Below, one piece after another: positions 12,720-59,394 of a stretch of 64,000 nucleotides of DNA (positions are counted from its first letter, which is position 1; the number at the start of each line of letters is the position of its first letter). Under the pieces are notes generated by a model. The model searched no databases. It was not told the DNA's origin and saw only the letters and a list, made by a program, of their open reading frames with translations. Made by a program: the position numbers and the translations under genes. The stretch is from Bacteroidota bacterium (lineage in GTDB: Bacteria; Bacteroidota; Bacteroidia; Flavobacteriales_C; GCA-002722245). The stretch covers positions 1,293-65,292 of the forward strand of contig JAPLEZ010000152.1 of the NCBI GenBank assembly GCA_026390935.1, given 5' to 3'.

Positions 12720-13424
12720 TTGTTTAATCTACCTAATATAATAACGCTGTGCAATTTAATTTGTGGGTGTTTGGCCATACAATCGGTGTTTATTTCTGGC
12801 TTTGCGTTTGATGCTCAGCCTGCTTTTATACCTGCATTTTGGTTTTTGGTTGCAGCGGCGGTATTTGATTTTTTTGATGGCTTTGCAGCGCGTTTATTAA
12901 AAATACAATCTCCCATTGGAAAGCAGCTGGATTCCTTAGCTGATGTGGTTACTTTTGGTGTAGCGCCTGGAATGATTATGTATCAGTATCTTGAAAATAT
13001 TCAATCGGATTTCAGTTACATAGCTTTGCTAATTCCTCTTTTTTCAGCTTTGCGTTTGGCAAAATTTAATGTTGACGAAAGACAAAACGAAGGTTTTTTA
13101 GGTTTGCCAACTCCAGCCAATGCTTTGTTTTTTGCAGCTCTGGCAACATTTAATAATAGCGGACAGATGTTGCATCTTGAAATTTTAAACAATCAATATA
13201 TAATAGGAGCAATTGTACTGGTGTTTTGCTTCATCATGATTTCCGAAATACCTTTACTGGCTCTTAAATTCAAATCCTTTAAATGGAAGGACAATCAGCT
13301 GAAATACATTTTTTTAATTTTAGGAGTGGTGCTTGGTGCAATATTTTTAATTCAGGCAACGCCTTTTATTATACTTTTGTACATCTTAGTGAGTGTTATC
13401 AATAACAAATTGACCAGAATATAA
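12720..13424 (+). CDS. pssA: CDP-diacylglycerol--serine O-phosphatidyltransferase (CDP-alcohol phosphatidyltransferase family)
   Basis: DFFDGFAARLL...GKQLDSLADVVTFGVAP CDP-alcohol transferase motif; 234 aa multi-TM, size typical of Bacteroidetes PssA. Confidence 0.75.
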   Translation: MFNLPNIITLCNLICGCLAIQSVFISGFAFDAQPAFIPAFWFLVAAAVFDFFDGFAARLLKIQSPIGKQLDSLADVVTFGVAPGMIMYQYLENIQSDFSYIALLIPLFSALRLAKFNVDERQNEGFLGLPTPANALFFAALATFNNSGQMLHLEILNNQYIIGAIVLVFCFIMISEIPLLALKFKSFKWKDNQLKYIFLILGVVLGAIFLIQATPFIILLYILVSVINNKLTRI

Positions 13425-15114: not shown

Positions 15115-15720
15115 TCAATCTGTTATTTCAGATTTCATTATAGATGATAAATCGAATTTTCCAGTGATTCCAAGTCCAAAATAGAAAGTGCCGCCATCAC
15201 CGTCTGCAAGCATACTACTTCGTATTTCTGGTTCAAGCATAAAGTTGTTTTTTAAGTAATACGACCTGCTTAGCTTTAAACTTACACCACTTCTCCATTC
15301 AGCGTAAGCAGAAGGATAAAAAAATGGCTTTGAATCTGGAATTTCAGTATAAATTTTATCACCTACTAGATAGTCGAAATTAAAACCTATCGAAAAATTA
15401 AGTTTGTTCCAGTAATGCTTGTAATAAAGGGGAAAGGAAATATAGCGGTGAATTACCACAGCATCATAAGTTTTTATCGTTGTATCAAAAATGGTTGCTG
15501 TTGCATCTTCCAAAATTCCCCTATAAAATAGGCCAGCTTCCAAACCATGATGCTCTCGAAACTTTTTTTCAAACGTTATTCCGCTTCCAAAACGGGGATT
15601 ATAATCTCCTAATAGTTCACAATTAATATTCGCTCCGATATATATATATTTTTGAGCTATAGCGTTTATGAAGCAGGTAGCTACTAGAAAAATAATAATA
15701 CACAATTCTTTGATTTTCAT
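15115..15720 (-). CDS. outer-membrane beta-barrel (porin-family-like) protein, hypothetical
   Basis: Signal peptide; alternating aromatic/hydrophobic beta-strand pattern; ends in aromatic-rich C-terminus; 201 aa. Confidence 0.5.
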   Translation of the reverse strand: MKIKELCIIIFLVATCFINAIAQKYIYIGANINCELLGDYNPRFGSGITFEKKFREHHGLEAGLFYRGILEDATATIFDTTIKTYDAVVIHRYISFPLYYKHYWNKLNFSIGFNFDYLVGDKIYTEIPDSKPFFYPSAYAEWRSGVSLKLSRSYYLKNNFMLEPEIRSSMLADGDGGTFYFGLGITGKFDLSSIMKSEITD

Positions 15721-24852: not shown

Positions 24853-24872
24853 GATTTAGAATAATAAAAGAA

Positions 24873-24910
24873 AATCCTGTGGTTGAAAAATCACAGGATT
24901 TTTTGTTTTT
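24873..24910 (+). terminator. Rho-independent terminator of nrdBA
   Basis: aaatcctgtg/cacaggattt 10-bp stem followed by T-run. Confidence 0.75.
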
Positions 24911-25073
24911 ACGATTTCCTTCAGTGTGGATGAGTATGGGTTTCCCTCTCGGAGGAGAGGGGTGCGTTGGAAAGTGTGTTGGCAGGGAGATGGACTTTTA
25001 CTTCCTAGCTCCGTGAAGTTTTAGAGCAGCGTAACTTCGCGGAATCTTTTATTGAGGCTTGCAGCCTCTCTTT

Positions 25074-25232
25074 GATACTTTTTGTCTTGAAACAAAAAGT
25101 ATCCAAAAAATTCAAGAGCCAAGAGATGCTTCCACCGCACGTCGCGAAATTTTTTATCCGTCGGTGACGGAAAAATTTCGCTCCCGCCACCGCCGGCTCG
25201 CCTCTTGGCTCATCCCCCCGCACGAAGTTACC
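25074..25232 (+). repeat. GC-rich structured element, copy A (candidate structured ncRNA / repeat family)
   Basis: Shares a collinear ~160-nt architecture with 37605-37764: hairpin with conserved loop TCTTGAAA, conserved CAAAAAATTCAAGAGCCAAGA.ATGCTTCC, variable nested hairpin, TCTTGGCTC, 3' CGCACGAAGTTACC; stems maintained by compensatory changes. Confidence 0.55.
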
Positions 25233-25457
25233 GACCATCTCCTGATGATCTATGCATGAAAATCGATGCGTACTGCACTTCTCCCTTTGAAAAAAGGGAG
25301 AGTGTGATGGAATAGCTGTGCGTTGGCATGAGGGATTTTAGATTTCTTCACCGGGAGACCTATCGCCCTCTACGTCCTTGCGAAATTTTTGTACTCAAAA
25401 ATGAAGCAATCTCATTTTGTTTTTTAATATTCATATATTTGGTAAAATGCCTACAAT

Positions 25458-26495
25458 ATGGAAGATTTCAAAAGTAAACTCACTCAAATTTCAGAAAGAA
25501 TAGGTTCACTGAAAGAACAAATTCAAACCGAAGAAGCAACAAAAAACGCATTCATCATGCCTTTTATTCAATTGTTAGGCTACGATGTATTTAACCCTAC
25601 TGAAGTAGTTCCAGAATTCATAGCAGATCATGGAATCAAAAAAGGAGAAAAAGTAGATTATGCTATTTTCATTAATGGCAAGCCTGAAATGATTATTGAA
25701 TGCAAGTCATGGAAAGAAAATATTGATCATCATAGTTCTCAGTTGGCAAGATACTTTCACACTTTGGATTGTAAATTTGCCTTACTAACAAACGGTATTA
25801 AATATCATTTCTTTACTGACCTAGTTAAAGTCAATGTGATGGATGAAAAGCCCTTTTTGAAGTTTGATATCACTGATATTACAGAGTTTCACTATGAAGA
25901 AATTTATAAATTTCACAAATCATTTTTCAATATTGAAAACATTGTCAATACCGCCAGCAAATTAAAATGTGAAAGTGAGTTAAAAGGAATTTTAGTTCGT
26001 GAATTTGAAAATCCTTCTGAAGCGTTCCTTAAACATTTTATCGGTCAAGTATACGAAGGTAGAGCAACAGAAAAAGTAGTCAATGATTTTAAATTGTTGT
26101 TTTCTAGGGCGTCTAACTTTTTCATTCAAGATCATATTAAAAAGAAATTAAACATTGCCTTTGAACAACAAACTCCTACTGTTATTGCTGTTCAAGAGAT
26201 TGTTGAGGACATAATAGATACTTCAAGTATTGCTCCTGGAGAGGAAAAGACAATTGAAACTACTATTGAAGAAATAGAGGCGTTTTACATTGTTAAATCG
26301 ATTCTGCGTACTAAAACGAATTCTTCTAGGATCATCATGAGAGATACTCATAGCTATTGTGGAGTTCTTTTAGATGACAATAACAGAAAGCCGATTTGCA
26401 GATTTTGGTTTAATGCGAAAAAGAAATACCTAGGTCTTTTTGATGATCAAAAGAAAGAAACAAGATTTGAAATTACTGCACTTGACGATATCTAA
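25458..26495 (+). CDS. type I restriction enzyme HsdR N-terminal (PD-(D/E)xK nuclease fold) domain protein, standalone
   Basis: EEATKNAFIMPFIQLLGYDVF...KVDYAIFINGKPEMIIECKSW matches HSDR_N core with D...E.K catalytic triad spacing; no helicase or methylase partner in window. Confidence 0.6.
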   Translation: MEDFKSKLTQISERIGSLKEQIQTEEATKNAFIMPFIQLLGYDVFNPTEVVPEFIADHGIKKGEKVDYAIFINGKPEMIIECKSWKENIDHHSSQLARYFHTLDCKFALLTNGIKYHFFTDLVKVNVMDEKPFLKFDITDITEFHYEEIYKFHKSFFNIENIVNTASKLKCESELKGILVREFENPSEAFLKHFIGQVYEGRATEKVVNDFKLLFSRASNFFIQDHIKKKLNIAFEQQTPTVIAVQEIVEDIIDTSSIAPGEEKTIETTIEEIEAFYIVKSILRTKTNSSRIIMRDTHSYCGVLLDDNNRKPICRFWFNAKKKYLGLFDDQKKETRFEITALDDI

Positions 26496-26568
26496 CAGTA
26501 TTCTGAGCAATTACAGAAAACGCCAGAGTATTATAATGTGAATATAGGAGCATAAAATTTGGCTTTCT

Positions 26569-28887: not shown

Positions 28888-30150
28888 TCACCCGTGAATT
28901 AATGCTGCAATTTCTTTGATGGTTTCTTCGCCTTTGTAAATCATCACTCTTTTCTCCCCTGTAGCGCGAATCTCCAATTCAAATTCTTTGGCTTCATTGA
29001 ATCGTCGACCTATGATGATTTTAAATGGAATACCAATTAAATCAGAGTCTTTGATTTTCACGCCCATACCTTGGTCGCGGTCGTCCACTAAAGTAGTCAC
29101 GCAAGCTTTTGTGAACGCTTTGTCGAATTCGTCAACAACAGCTTCAAACTCCGAACCTGCATATTTTAAAGGGATAATCGACAATTGATATGGAACAACA
29201 GCAACAGGCCATTTGATGCCTTTTTCATCGTTGTTTTGCTCAATGATGGCATTGATGATTCTGCTTACACCTATTCCGTAACAGCCCATCACCACAGGTT
29301 CTTTTTTACCTTCTTTGTTCACGAAGTTGAAGTTCATCGCGGCAGAATATTTCGTGCCGAGTTTGAAGATGTGACCTACTTCAATGCCTCTGAATATTTC
29401 GTGCGTAGCCGAATATTTCTCGACTTCATTTTCTTCAATTTTTACTACAACGCCTTTCTCTTCAATGAAATAATCTTCACCGAATTTGGATAATGCTACA
29501 ATTTCTTCGGAACCATCTCCGCCAATTTCGCCCGGATCGGCAGCAATACCAATCACTTTCAAGCCTAAACGTTTGAAAATAGCAAAGTAAGCATCGCGCA
29601 AAGCATTGTATTCTCTGTCTAAATCTTCATTGGAAATATGAAAGCTGTATGCATCTTTCATCATGAATTCTTTTCCGCGCAAGAGGCCGTTTTTAGGACG
29701 CATTTCATCGCGAAACTTTCTGCCGATTTGGTACAAGGTAAAAGGAAATTGTTTGTAGGACGATACTTTAGAACGGGCTAAATCAATGACTACTTCTTCG
29801 TGTGTAGGACCGAAACAAAACTCTCTTTCATCGCGGTTTTTAAATTTCAACATCTCTTTTCCGTAAGCATTCCACCTTTCCGATTCTACCCACAGTTCTT
29901 TCGGTTGCACAATAGGCATCGCTATTTCCTGACAGCCGATGGCGTCCAGTTCTTGACGGATAACCGTTTCAATTTTTTGCAACACTTTATTTCCCAAAGG
30001 AAGAAAGTTGTATAATCCAGCCGATACCTGTTGGATCAATCCAGCTTGTATACATAGCTTGTGACTTGTGGCGTCGAGTTTTTCGTTAACCGTTCTTTCG
30101 GTGTGGATGAATGCTTTTGAATACTTCATGATATTAATTTGAAAGGGCAA
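28888..30150 (-). CDS. proS: proline--tRNA ligase (bacterial-type without editing insertion)
   Basis: GPTHEEVVIDLARS, KFRDEMRPKNGLLRGKEFMMKDAYSF class II motifs; C-terminal anticodon-binding domain; probable start at MKYSKAF. Confidence 0.85.
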   Translation of the reverse strand: MPFQINIMKYSKAFIHTERTVNEKLDATSHKLCIQAGLIQQVSAGLYNFLPLGNKVLQKIETVIRQELDAIGCQEIAMPIVQPKELWVESERWNAYGKEMLKFKNRDEREFCFGPTHEEVVIDLARSKVSSYKQFPFTLYQIGRKFRDEMRPKNGLLRGKEFMMKDAYSFHISNEDLDREYNALRDAYFAIFKRLGLKVIGIAADPGEIGGDGSEEIVALSKFGEDYFIEEKGVVVKIEENEVEKYSATHEIFRGIEVGHIFKLGTKYSAAMNFNFVNKEGKKEPVVMGCYGIGVSRIINAIIEQNNDEKGIKWPVAVVPYQLSIIPLKYAGSEFEAVVDEFDKAFTKACVTTLVDDRDQGMGVKIKDSDLIGIPFKIIIGRRFNEAKEFELEIRATGEKRVMIYKGEETIKEIAALIHG

Positions 30151-35612: not shown

Positions 35613-36002
35613 TTAGTTCACAGTTTTAAGTTCACGGTTCATAGTTTTTTCTGAAAGGGAGTTTTTAAGTCCTTGAATCATTTTAACCAGTTCTTCTATT
35701 TCAGTATATAATTTTTGAAATTGAATTTCATTAATAATATTTCTTGCTTTTGCAAGATGCAGACATGCCACTACTTCGATGCCTGATCGTTGTGCAATAG
35801 ATAAAAATCTTGAAAACTCTTTTTTTGATTGGCCAATAGCACCTTCAGCGATGTTTAGTCCAACAGAGTCTGCAGCACGTTTTATTTGTGAAGAAAGAAT
35901 ATATAATTCTTCCTTTGGAAAAGTAAGAGTTAACTCATGAATGTCCTTAGACAATGCAAGAGCTTTCTGCCATATTTTTAATTTTTCAAAACTAAAAGCC
36001 AT
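35613..36002 (-). CDS. four-helix-bundle protein (23S rRNA intervening-sequence protein family)
   Basis: 129 aa; [46 protein letters not shown] matches the TIGR02436-type family; inserted between the two metH modules. Confidence 0.75.
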
Positions 36003-36006
36003 TCTG

Positions 36007-37029
36007 CTAACTGTGAACTGTGAGCTCTAAACTGAGAACTTTTCTCGGTTTGTATTTCGCAGCAGCATCAGCAATCGCTTTGATGTGCGCAGGTGTTGTA
36101 CCACAGCAACCTCCAATGATGTTCACCAGGCCTCTGTCTAAGAAGCCAACGATTTGTTTTTGCATATCGGATGGAGACTCATCGTATTCTCCCATCTCGT
36201 TTGGCAAGCCAGCGTTAGGGTGAGCACTCACACCAAAGGAAGTGTTGTTGGATAAAACTTCTAAATAAGGTCTCATCAAATCGGCGCCCAATGCGCAATT
36301 GAAACCTACACTGAGTAAATCCATATGTGATACTGAAGTTAAAAATGCTTCAGCAGTTTGACCCGATAATGTTCGTCCGCTGGCATCGGTAATGGTGCCA
36401 GAAATCATCACGGGAAGATTGGTTCCTAGTTCTTCCTGCACGTTACTAATGGCTACCATAGCGGATTTCGCGTTGAGCGTATCAAAAATAGTTTCCACCA
36501 AAAGGATGTCAACGCCACCTTCAATCAATGCTTTTACTTGTTCAGAATATGCAACCACTAATTGATCAAAAGTAACGGCTCTATAGCCCGGGTCATTTAC
36601 ATCTGGCGACATTGATGCAGTTCTGTTCGTTGGACCAATAGAACCTGCTACATACCTCGGTTTATCTGGGTTTTTGGCAGTGTATTCATCTGCAGCTTCT
36701 TTGGCGATTTTTGCTGAACAGTAGTTGATGTCATACACTGCATGTTCCAAATGGTAATCGGCCTGAGCGATGGTAGTACCACTAAAAGTATTGGTTTCTA
36801 AGATATCAGCACCAGCTTCTAAATAAAGGCAGTGAATTTCTTTCAATACATCGGGACGAGATATACCAACTAAATCGTTGTTCCCTTTGAGGGAATGCGG
36901 ATGATCCTTAAATTTTTCACCCCTGAAATCTTCTTCTGTAAGATTATAGGTTTGAATCAAGCTTCCCATTGCGCCGTCCAGCACAAGGATGCGATCTTTC
37001 AATACTTCTCTGACGTCTGGTTTGTTCAT
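36007..37029 (-). CDS. homocysteine S-methyltransferase domain protein (MetH N-terminal Hcy-binding module as a separate ORF)
   Basis: [13 protein letters not shown]...ETNTF...[11 protein letters not shown] zinc/Hcy-binding motifs; first gene after SAM riboswitch. Confidence 0.85.
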
Positions 37030-37120: not shown

Positions 37121-37225
37121 GTTTCTTATTTTGCCCTTTGCAGGGTTGGAATTAGCACCTGTTCCAGTAACGGAATGGTTGCCAAGGTTTCGTAGGGCCA
37201 GTCCCTCCACCTTTCTTAATAAGCA
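37121..37225 (-). promoter_or_regulatory. SAM-I (S-box) riboswitch aptamer
   Basis: Minus-strand sequence CUUAUUAAGAAAGGUGGAGGGACUGGCCCUACGAAACCUUGGCAACC...GGUGCUAAUUCCAACCCUGCAAAGGGCAAAAUAAGAA matches the SAM-I consensus (P1-P4, kink-turn, pseudoknot nucleotides) upstream of a methionine synthase operon. Confidence 0.9.
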
Positions 37226-37261
37226 ATGTTTAAAGAACGAATGATGCAAATGTACAAAAAA

Positions 37262-37609
37262 CTATTTCCGATGTATAATAGAATTGAATTTTTCTTTGAT
37301 TTTTTTTCTGAAAAAATACCAAACTAGTCCCGCTAAAATAATATAAGGAACAACCGCCAATATTAAAATCCCCGTGTTCAGTCCTCTTCCGTACGATTGA
37401 TCCATATCGGAAAGATTACTTCCGTTTTTCAAACCTGATTCGGCTACTGCTTTGCATTGAGAGCATTGGGCGTAGAGAGCATTTGCGCCGGATAAGAATA
37501 GGAAAAATATGAGGAGTAATTTTTTCACGAGGTAAAAATACAGGATTCTGTCTTCTTTTCTAAAGAAGCAAAGACTTACTTTTTTGTCTTGAAACAAAAA
37601 AGTAAGCAA
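37262..37609 (-). CDS. small secreted/membrane protein, hypothetical (annotated N-terminus probably too long)
   Basis: Signal-like LLLIFFLFLSGANALYAQ and C-terminal TM + KK tail; upstream part of ORF overlaps repeat copy B so true start is likely a non-ATG codon near 37525. Confidence 0.4.
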   Translation of the reverse strand: MLTFLFQDKKVSLCFFRKEDRILYFYLVKKLLLIFFLFLSGANALYAQCSQCKAVAESGLKNGSNLSDMDQSYGRGLNTGILILAVVPYIILAGLVWYFFRKKIKEKFNSIIHRK

Positions 37610-37764
37610 AAAAATTCAAGAGCCAAGATATGCTTCCTCCCGCCTCGGCAAAAACGCGTTGCCTGCGGCCGCGCTTTTTGCCTCATCTCCACCGCTGGCC
37701 CGCATCTTGGCTCAGGCCTGCGCACGAAGTTACCCTCCCGTTGCGTGAAGTAGTTTTTCAGGAA
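37605..37764 (+). repeat. GC-rich structured element, copy B (paralogue of 25074-25232)
   Basis: Same architecture as copy A with compensatory stem changes (cttacttttttg/caaaaaagtaag versus gatactttttg/caaaaagtatc; gagccaagat.tgc/gcatcttggctc versus gagccaagag/ctcttggctc). Confidence 0.55.
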
Positions 37765-37829
37765 ATGCCAGCTAACTAACTCTCCTCCTTTTCAAGGAGG
37801 AGTACCCGAAGGGGGAGGTGGTTATTTTA

Positions 37830-59206: not shown

Positions 59207-59250
59207 CAGTTATTTTGATCCATCCAGTACGTCTTGCATATTGCTTCCCT

Positions 59251-59369
59251 CTTTAAGAAGAGGGGTGTGAAAGCCTTTTGCGCGGAAGCAGGGAGATGGA
59301 CTCGTGCTAATCCATCTCCCTGCTCACACACTTTCCTAACGCACCCCTCTTCTTCAAGAGGGAAGCAGT
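59251..59369. repeat. GC-rich doubly palindromic element (MITE-like)
   Basis: About 27-bp terminal inverted repeats (gcttccctctttaagaagaggggtgtg / cgcacccctcttcttcaagagggaagc), each arm itself a hairpin, flanking a perfect 13-bp-stem hairpin gcagggagatgga-N10-tccatctccctgc; degenerate partial copy at 24931-24985. Confidence 0.6.
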
Positions 59370-59394
59370 GTGCAAAAAGCCTCCGTTAGTTATA

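Follow-up and report, generated by a model that had tools for sequence, protein, structure and literature searches.

The element that occurs in two copies (A and B) in the window, the whole 64-kb (64,000-nucleotide) stretch of DNA analysed here, probably belongs to a new lineage-specific family of REP/BIME/MITE-like nested-palindrome repeats. The best explanation of the observations is a set of short GC-rich nested-palindrome repeats which fills the intergenic DNA of a narrow, low-GC clade of uncultured Flavobacteriales; the nearest known counterparts are REP/BIME mosaics and MITEs. A reading as repeat DNA, probably mobile, is preferred over a dedicated RNA gene because the copies are scattered between genes in one uncultured Flavobacteriales group. 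Between close relatives copies are gained, lost, truncated and recombined, with their pairings retained.

The unit has a length of ~160 nt. Copies A and B are collinear on the + strand (25074-25232 and 37575-37734) and share 73% column identity. Their collinearity had been recognized in an earlier note on this DNA, which placed the second interval ~30 nt off, at 37605-37764. The two long conserved blocks reported there are exact, each with two matches in the 64-kb window compared to ~0 expected by chance, and a repeat survey of the 64-kb window yielded no third copy. The high GC content is confirmed as well, with 0.50-0.51 for the copies versus 0.386 for the whole window.

Both copies have the same layout. 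An AT-rich hairpin of 11-12 bp with the loop TCTTGAAA (hairpin 1) is followed by an A-rich linker, after which comes the segment TTCAAGA, the complement of the hairpin-1 loop. A 10-bp closing stem, formed by GAGCCAAGA(G/T) with (C/A)TCTTGGCTC, encloses C-rich unpaired strands around an interior hairpin, the interior being wholly different in A and B, and the unit is completed by a tail that ends in CGCACGAAGTTACC. All of the features described previously could be confirmed, namely hairpin 1, the long stem, nested inner hairpins that differ between A and B, and the complementarity of loop and linker. The parts are located as follows.

25074-25232, + strand: core copy A, A-type subfamily, with hairpin 1, A-rich linker, closing stem with nested interior hairpin, and tail
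25074-25103, + strand: hairpin 1 of copy A, GATACTTTTTG / loop TCTTGAAA / CAAAAAGTATC
25111-25117, + strand: linker segment TTCAAGA of copy A, complement of the loop TCTTGAA (25085-25091), an interleaved pairing of pseudoknot topology
25116-25125, + strand: 5' arm of the copy A closing stem, GAGCCAAGAG, with its partner CTCTTGGCTC at 25202-25211
25140-25184, + strand: interior of copy A, with a CGTC tag, the nested hairpin GCGAAATTTTTT[ATCCGTCGGTGACGGA]AAAATTTCGC, then TCC
25202-25232, + strand: 3' arm of the copy A closing stem, CTCTTGGCTC, and the conserved tail ...CGCACGAAGTTACC
37575-37734, + strand: core copy B, B-type subfamily, 88% identical to 13171-13328 of the related locus L212, a different locus
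37575-37606, 37615-37621 and 37620-37629, + strand: 5' side of copy B, namely hairpin 1, TTCAAGA and stem arm
37647-37682, 37704-37713 and 37714-37734, + strand: 3' side of copy B, namely CCTC-tagged interior hairpin, stem arm and tail

The interior hairpin is exchanged between subfamilies, and the tag preceding it in the core is CGTC in A-type copies, CCTC in B-type copies, CGCC in L215 and CTCT in D-type copies. The unpaired segments ATGCT.CC, CCACCGC.GGC.CGC and CGCACGAAGTTACC are kept within subfamilies. In copy A the tail CCGCACGAAGTTAC is an inverted repeat, over 9-12 nt, of GTAACTTCGCGG at 25031-25042, that is, 5' of the earlier-drawn start of the element. The earlier statement that terminal inverted repeats are missing is consequently wrong for copy A, and the argument against a MITE that was made from it had been built on boundaries drawn too narrowly. 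The core tail (25219-25232), the A-type upstream hairpin (25031-25042) and the sequence just downstream of both copy B (37741-37752) and the L001 copy (about 15140-15150) have in common a motif that resembles CG(T/C)GAAGTT or its complement.

Compared to shuffled sequence, the + strand folds with z-scores of -6.0 (copy A) and -3.7 (copy B). The minus strand performs nearly as well (-4.4 and -3.0, respectively), so that folding cannot name a strand. Paired changes were analysed in a hand-curated, N-padded structural alignment of nine related rows fitted to the structure; it was used because a MAFFT alignment left hairpin 1 out of register. In the three helices (hairpin 1, loop/linker and closing stem) 94% of the cells are paired, in contrast to 35-54% after a shift of the 3' partners by 1-3 columns, and 10 pairs are changed on both sides versus 0-3 in the shifted controls. 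The covariation score observed in this nine-row alignment was reached by no shuffle. The compensatory changes claimed from two sequences are thus borne out in nine copies, more strongly than two sequences could show.

Within the nine rows, the hairpin-1 helix comprises 12 columns, is 94% paired and contains four pairs changed on both sides. The closing stem (helix 3) likewise has four such pairs, with changes from G-C to A-U and from G-C to U-A, as well as a paired deletion in one of the L006 copies. For the loop/linker pairing, proposed earlier as a possible pseudoknot between TCTTGAA and TTCAAGA, three versions with changes on both sides are found across the copies, namely TCTTGAA/TTCAAGA, CTTGAT/ATCAAG and TCTTGGC/GCCAAGA; 97-98% of the cells of this helix are paired and one position displays three pair types (A-U in five rows, U-A in three and C-G in one). 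One-sided pair variation does not occur in the nine-row alignment. On the + strand 2 G-U cells stand against 4 A-C cells, hence there is no G-U strand bias, and about 9 of the 12 double changes are transversion swaps. These pair statistics, small in number, are more readily reconciled with a constraint that is strand-neutral or acts on DNA than with an RNA evolving step by step via G-U, and compensatory changes are equally expected of a DNA palindrome.

Hairpin 1 with its loop directly adjoins the linker, and this block of ~50 nt can be exchanged as a whole. Since the hairpin-1 and loop/linker pairings interleave, a topology that nested palindrome insertion cannot give, a folded single strand appears to be under selection; this strand could be either RNA or DNA. 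Simple nesting of palindromes leaves a single feature unexplained, namely this interleaved pairing and its compensatory changes. It is quite unlikely, albeit conceivable, that a mobile palindromic repeat carries the core as a functional structured RNA or ssDNA of ~160-250 nt, which would contain a true H-type pseudoknot and represent a class outside Rfam. Such a pseudoknot would consist of a 12-bp AU-rich stem with the A-rich strand in its groove and a second stem of 6-7 bp, and the RNA or ssDNA could then aid its own mobilisation or control the 3' ends of adjoining transcripts.

Further copies were sought by profile searches of ~450 kb of related loci (~282 kb non-redundant) from Flavobacteriales MAGs and metagenomes, referred to by L numbers. 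The relatives are uncultured Flavobacteriales MAGs or metagenome contigs with 84-96% identity in ProRS and 89-99% in NrdA, and several bear groundwater or freshwater sample names. Beyond the two copies of the window this homologue search, which the earlier note had suggested as a check, detected seven further copies or fragments. In total, five unrelated intergenic sites in the ~282 kb are occupied by full copies, seven in number; these sites follow nrdA, DUF420, pheS, an M42 peptidase gene and a 944-aa gene. A 3'-decayed orthologue and two fragments come in addition, and the copy density is modest, roughly one per 40 kb of sampled DNA.

L001 and the L002/L205/L215 group have orthologues of copy A 3' of nrdA; in the group, 3' arm and tail have been lost. 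The L086 copy is situated downstream of pheS and the L212 copy downstream of the M42 peptidase gene; L212 also harbors a decayed 3' half. At site B, L007 possesses an internally deleted copy. In L006 two copies are arranged tail-to-tail, 145 nt apart, as an inverted dimer. With this single inverted doublet among five occupied sites, doublets are not the predominant arrangement. Four of the six independent copies are sense and downstream of a gene, the other two antisense to the neighbour gene.

Three subfamilies are distinguished by identity, A-type (86-92%), B-type (88%) and D-type (78%), with 59-74% between subfamilies. Copy A is 86% identical to its L001 orthologue and likewise 86% to the L086 copy at another site. 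Copies from different loci of different genomes (L086 at pheS versus L001 at nrdA, 92%; copy B versus L212, 88%) are at least as similar as orthologous copies at the nrdA site (86%). Moreover, the copies are far more similar than neutral sites, as nrdA four-fold sites agree in 77% or 49%; for the window and L002, the core is ~85% identical and the nrdA four-fold sites 49%. Module similarity well above that of neutral sites therefore indicates strong constraint, or recent spread together with homogenisation. In copy A the hairpin-1/linker block is B-type (96% identical to L007) and the interior A-type, and owing to this combination copy A looks recombinant. In L086 and L213 a copy lies at or next to the contig end, and repeats are where assemblies commonly break off.

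Half-element nhmmer profiles gave no extra copies, and three patterns had 0 matches in viral contigs. An exact 22-base block likewise had 0 matches in a genome collection that does not include the source genome, and exact look-ups of two window proteins gave no record. A BLAST comparison with plasmid and phage collections retrieved only a chance match of 54 nt in a Lactobacillus parA gene. In a metagenome scan with a loose 17-base pattern, 119 of the 120 loci among the matches listed were chance hits and only L086 was real.

The comparison of close relatives depicts the turnover of the element. L219, L001 and the window are 99% identical in NrdA, with 76-77% identity at the nrdA four-fold sites. 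In L219 nrdA is followed by a terminator, 22 nt and a lone CGTC-tagged hairpin, the core being absent, while the same interval spans ~330 nt in L001 and ~470 nt in the window, both with the core and the latter with further modules. At site B unrelated hairpins take the place of the element in L001, and in L202 the flanking modules are kept and the core is missing. No direct repeats indicative of a target-site duplication were found at the junctions in the filled/empty comparisons, none of which is base-exact. Deletion could account for the presence/absence patterns as well.

The gene after nrdA also varies: an HSDR_N-domain protein is encoded there in the window (24853-26500), VanW in L001 and L219, TsaB directly in L202, a protein with a Por-secretion tail in L215 and others in L209. 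Because the next gene differs between close relatives, the repeat-rich nrdA junction is regarded as a hotspot of gene-content change.

The flanks of A and B had been called unrelated. This holds between A and B only, since each flank is a repeated module found beside other copies, as depicted in a module map made with blastn-short. The conserved unit often extends ~60 nt past the tail into a CGTC-tagged hairpin. The following modules surround the two copies.

24941-24993, + strand: repeat module upstream of copy A, TTTCCCTCTCGGAGGAGAGGGG...GGCAGGGAGATGG, recurring at 59312-59364 on the other strand (89%)
25008-25072, + strand: two flanking hairpin modules of A-type copies, GCTCCGTGAAGTT..GTAACTTCGCGG and GAGGCTTGCAGCCTC, common to L086 (pheS site), L202 and L002
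25233-25372, + strand: ~140 nt of extra hairpin-bearing sequence between tail and CGTC unit, with CTTCTCCCTTTGAAAAAAGGGAGAG at 25278-25302
25373-25414, + strand: CGTC-tagged REP-like unit, CGTC / CTTGCGAAATTTTTGTACTCAAAAATGAAGCAAT / CTCA
37551-37574, + strand: 5' flanking hairpin of B- and D-type copies, TCTTCTTTTCTAAAGAAGCAAAGA, found at both L006 copies and in L007, with a remnant in L202
37770-37824, + strand: hairpin module downstream of copy B, AGCTAACTAACTCTCCTCCTTTTCAAGGAGGAGTACCCGAAGGGGGAGGTGGTTA, identical in 55 of 55 positions in L007 and missing in L001

The module at 24941-24993 also occurs in L202 (12467-12519, 98%) and twice in L003 (9768-9889). It represents a second repeat family, TTTCCCTCT..AGAGGGG..GGCAGGGAGATGG, which is present as this singleton beside copy A and as an inverted REPIN-like dimer at 59240-59375 of the window; the 98% identity to L202 contrasts with ~49% at the nrdA four-fold sites. 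The 3' arm of the GCTCCGTGAAGTT..GTAACTTCGCGG module is the inverted repeat of the core tail mentioned above. The extra sequence at 25233-25372 is missing in L086 and L212, where the tail almost abuts the CGTC unit, and is shorter in L001. The 55-nt module CTCTCCTCCTTTTCAAGGAGGAG + TACCCGAAGGGGGAGGTGGTTA (37770-37824; L007 1403-1457) is 100% identical between the window and L007, compared to 73-84% for the adjacent coding DNA.

In four genomes (window, L001, L086 and L212) the CGTC unit follows the core, and in L219, L209 and L006 it stands alone. Its consensus is CGTC / ATTGCGA..GAAGCAAT / C(C/T)CA. The tag precedes the stem in the window, L001, L086, L212, L006 and L209 and is degenerate (GTCGTT) in L219. 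The unit ATTGC...GCAAT is followed by CCCA in L212 or by CTCA in the window, L001, L006 and L209; in the window the stem begins with CTTGC, the first pair being lost. The stem consists of a 5-bp outer part, a 3x3 internal loop and a second hairpin, AATTTTTG-TACT-CAAAAATT or ATCCGTCAGCTGACGGAT. In terms of the features that define CGTC REPs, the unit at 25373-25414 and its relatives possess the tag, begin their stem with A-T pairs and have a tail similar to CCA; a simple stem of 8-9 bp with a loop of 4-5 nt is not found in them. The core, with ~160 nt and three helices, differs from a single palindrome of 20-40 bp with a terminal tag.

A search against Rfam 15, likewise proposed in the earlier note, gave no family at the gathering threshold over the copies and, with permissive filters, only chance matches (E 0.3-10), hence no reclassification to a known RNA family results; in the window only a SAM riboswitch and tRNA pass. 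Neither a promoter of the Bacteroidota type (TTTG-N17-23-TAnnTTTG) near either copy nor sigma-70-like sites at corresponding positions were found, and no shared promoter is possible because the upstream modules differ between the copies. No terminator follows the tail in either copy, and hairpin 1 is terminator-like only in copy B on the minus strand, not in copy A. A transcription terminator was rejected as the identity of the element, as nrdA has a canonical terminator of its own before copy A is reached and the element is not followed by a T-tract. A riboswitch, leader or 3'UTR element of one gene family was likewise dismissed, since neighbour genes and orientation differ between copies. 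Among the Pfam hits of the window (25 of its 48 families listed) and of the annotated loci, which represent a small part of each genome, there is no mobilising gene (transposase, RAYT or Y1/HUH), and neither these sequences nor the plasmid and phage collections yielded a full-length parent IS. An upstream partner of the tail, and with it terminal inverted repeats, is restricted to A-type copies; B- and D-type copies are without it.

Several other explanations have to be weighed against repeat DNA. Judged from the sequence, it is rather unlikely that the copies are paralogous structured small RNAs or a cis-acting RNA module expressed from the + strand, in which an H-type pseudoknot would be built from hairpin 1, the A-rich linker and TTCAAGA and the C-rich strands would bind targets or a protein. 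The three helices kept by both-side changes, including the interleaved loop/linker helix, the conserved unpaired blocks, a GC content well above the genome background, the fold z-scores of -6.0 and -3.7 and the four of six independent copies in sense orientation downstream of a gene are in line with this explanation, and a core ~85% identical where four-fold sites are ~50% identical would fit purifying selection. However, a conserved promoter or terminator is absent and the upstream modules differ, two of the six copies are antisense, the minus strand folds about equally well, and the pairs show neither a G-U strand bias nor one-sided change. Furthermore, one genome lacks the core despite 99% identity in NrdA, copies persist in truncated or 3'-decayed form, the interior is exchangeable, and the element travels in mosaics with REP-like repeats and has no Rfam match. 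The earlier note had offered a structured RNA or a repeat family and regarded covariation as the mark of a functional RNA. The latter finds no support in the context, given the presence/absence patterns, the REP-like mosaics, the missing conserved promoter and terminator, the lack of wobble bias and the prevalence of transversions among the double changes; the repeat family is supported by the further non-orthologous sites, both orientations and the truncated relics.

Two more specific kinds of mobile DNA would account for part of the observations. That the element is non-autonomous and moved as ssDNA by an HUH/Y1 enzyme of the RAYT or IS200/IS605 TnpA type is decidedly unlikely; this would be a specific mechanistic version of the best explanation, with subterminal hairpins being recognised and the loop/linker complementarity guiding the enzyme to the cleavage site. 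No Y1/HUH gene is present in any annotated locus, CGTC-type REPs are without associated transposase (PMC3733652), and the element has no GTAG tag, is at 160 nt much longer than a REP and displays no identified cleavage-site motif. On the other hand, the pairing constraint is strand-independent, inverted dimers exist both in L006 and, for the other repeat family, at 59240-59375 of the window, and tagged REP-like hairpins are associated with the element, RAYTs being known to recognise and cleave REPs as single-stranded hairpins (PMC3733652). Very improbable is a classical MITE, i.e. a deletion derivative of a DDE-type insertion sequence moved via terminal inverted repeats. The size in the MITE range, the intergenic location, the variable presence between close relatives and the 9-12 nt inverted repeat of copy A (GTAACTTCGCGG at 25031-25042 versus the tail) agree with such an origin, but B- and D-type copies lack the upstream inverted-repeat partner, no target-site duplication was seen at any junction compared, no related IS occurs in the plasmid and phage collections or the window, and the boundaries are modular instead of fixed.

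For the preferred family of nested-palindrome repeats, spread or homogenisation would take place as DNA, either via a single-stranded folded intermediate or by recombination or gene conversion among copies. The moving would presumably be done by a trans-acting enzyme encoded outside the sampled DNA. The pairings may be retained because the spreading process, or a hairpin-templated repair, needs them. A copy downstream of a gene is probably co-transcribed with it, and the mRNA may then be influenced at its 3' end or in its stability, a role also proposed for REPs.

From its gene content the window belongs to an aerobic, low-GC member of the Bacteroidota: it encodes a class Ia ribonucleotide reductase and a short ProRS, has a cox/SCO1/DUF420 cluster, and its metH is split and preceded by a SAM riboswitch. 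The riboswitch is full-length (85 bits, 37123-37225, minus strand) and lies upstream of the homocysteine methyltransferase part of metH. A cassette of ~387 bp (35653-36039), bounded by the inverted repeats AGTTCACAGTT / AACTGTGAACT, interrupts metH between domains and leaves a homocysteine methyltransferase ORF of 340 aa and a remaining part of 907 aa. The cassette encodes a four-helix-bundle protein of 129 aa, a '23S rRNA intervening sequence protein' (PF05635, 35613-36002, minus strand); metH is uninterrupted in L001 and L007. A link of the core to this cassette was dropped, the inverted repeats of the cassette being unrelated to the modules described here. The ProRS is a 420-aa short form (28888-30150, minus strand) with its best matches in the genome collection, outside the clade, in SAR86, Patescibacteria and similar groups (36-47%). 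As these best matches beyond the immediate clade are not other Bacteroidota, an unusual or horizontally acquired type is suggested.

Open reading frames have been called across several copies. The 115-aa ORF at 37262-37609 (minus strand), earlier termed a small membrane-protein gene, has its TTG start inside hairpin 1 of copy B, so that its listed 5' end overlaps the element; it may be a real gene with a more downstream start, as 37226-37540 is conserved in L001 (83%) and L007 (78%). In L205, L207, L208 and L215-L218 a 56-aa minus-strand ORF is called across the element (e.g. 12649-12819 of L215). The 77-aa and 66-aa ORFs over copy A in the window have no Pfam match, and the former has no homologue in the protein database. 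The 56-aa, 77-aa and 66-aa ORFs are taken to be spurious.

Together with several companion families, this previously unrecorded repeat family populates an uncultured freshwater/groundwater clade of Flavobacteriales. Such repeats break metagenome assemblies, attract spurious ORF calls and mark hotspots of gene content, as downstream of nrdA. They also illustrate that base-pair covariation, even of the pseudoknot type, can arise in repetitive palindromic DNA, for which reason covariation alone is no proof of an RNA gene.

Several known systems invite comparison. The GC clusters of yeast mitochondria are likewise palindromic and GC-rich, and as modules they spread through an AT-rich genome and become nested within each other; they belong to another domain of life and have no sequence relationship to the present family, so that the resemblance is an analogy only. 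Bacterial MITEs such as Correia/NEMIS, RUP, ERIC and Nezha are non-coding, strongly folding elements of 70-300 bp which are located next to genes and are probably co-transcribed, with a likely effect on the mRNA. Size, non-coding nature, strong folding, gene-adjacent position and likely co-transcription with an effect on the mRNA are shared by the family described here, which in contrast has no consistent terminal inverted repeats and modular boundaries, and for which neither a target-site duplication at the junctions compared nor a parent IS in the DNA covered was found. These four families are named as background in PMC3733652.

REPINs are mobilised by RAYTs (PMC3116915, PMC3337134). According to these two papers, they resemble the present family in forming inverted palindrome doublets, in a sequence kept across lineages and in mostly vertical persistence with turnover at loci; the family in the Flavobacteriales differs from REPINs in consisting mostly of singletons and of a larger, more structured unit, and in having no RAYT gene in the loci sampled.

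According to Di Nocera et al. (2013, PMC3733652), CGTC REPs are defined by an unpaired tag at one end (CGTC or TGTC/CCTC), a stem that begins with complementary A-T pairs and a short unpaired tail close to CCA. They are present in Bacteroidetes, lie downstream of genes, often as inverted dimers and sometimes nested in larger family-specific palindromes, and have no dedicated transposase (PMC3733652). Contrary to REPs of 20-40 nt, the core described here comprises ~160 nt with three separate helices, one of them interleaved with hairpin 1, and its own ends carry no GTAG or CGTC tag. The companion unit shares with CGTC REPs the CGTC tag, the A-T stem start and the CCA-like tail, and differs in its stem, which in place of a simple one of 8-9 bp has an outer part of 5 bp, then an internal loop, and a nested hairpin rich in AT. 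A linked transposase is not known for CGTC REPs, and none was found in the window or the loci sampled. Like REP/BIME mosaics and CGTC REPs, the members of this family are GC-rich, intergenic palindromes, mostly downstream of genes and variably present between relatives, which form inverted dimers and mosaics with other motifs and are sometimes contained in a larger family-specific palindrome.
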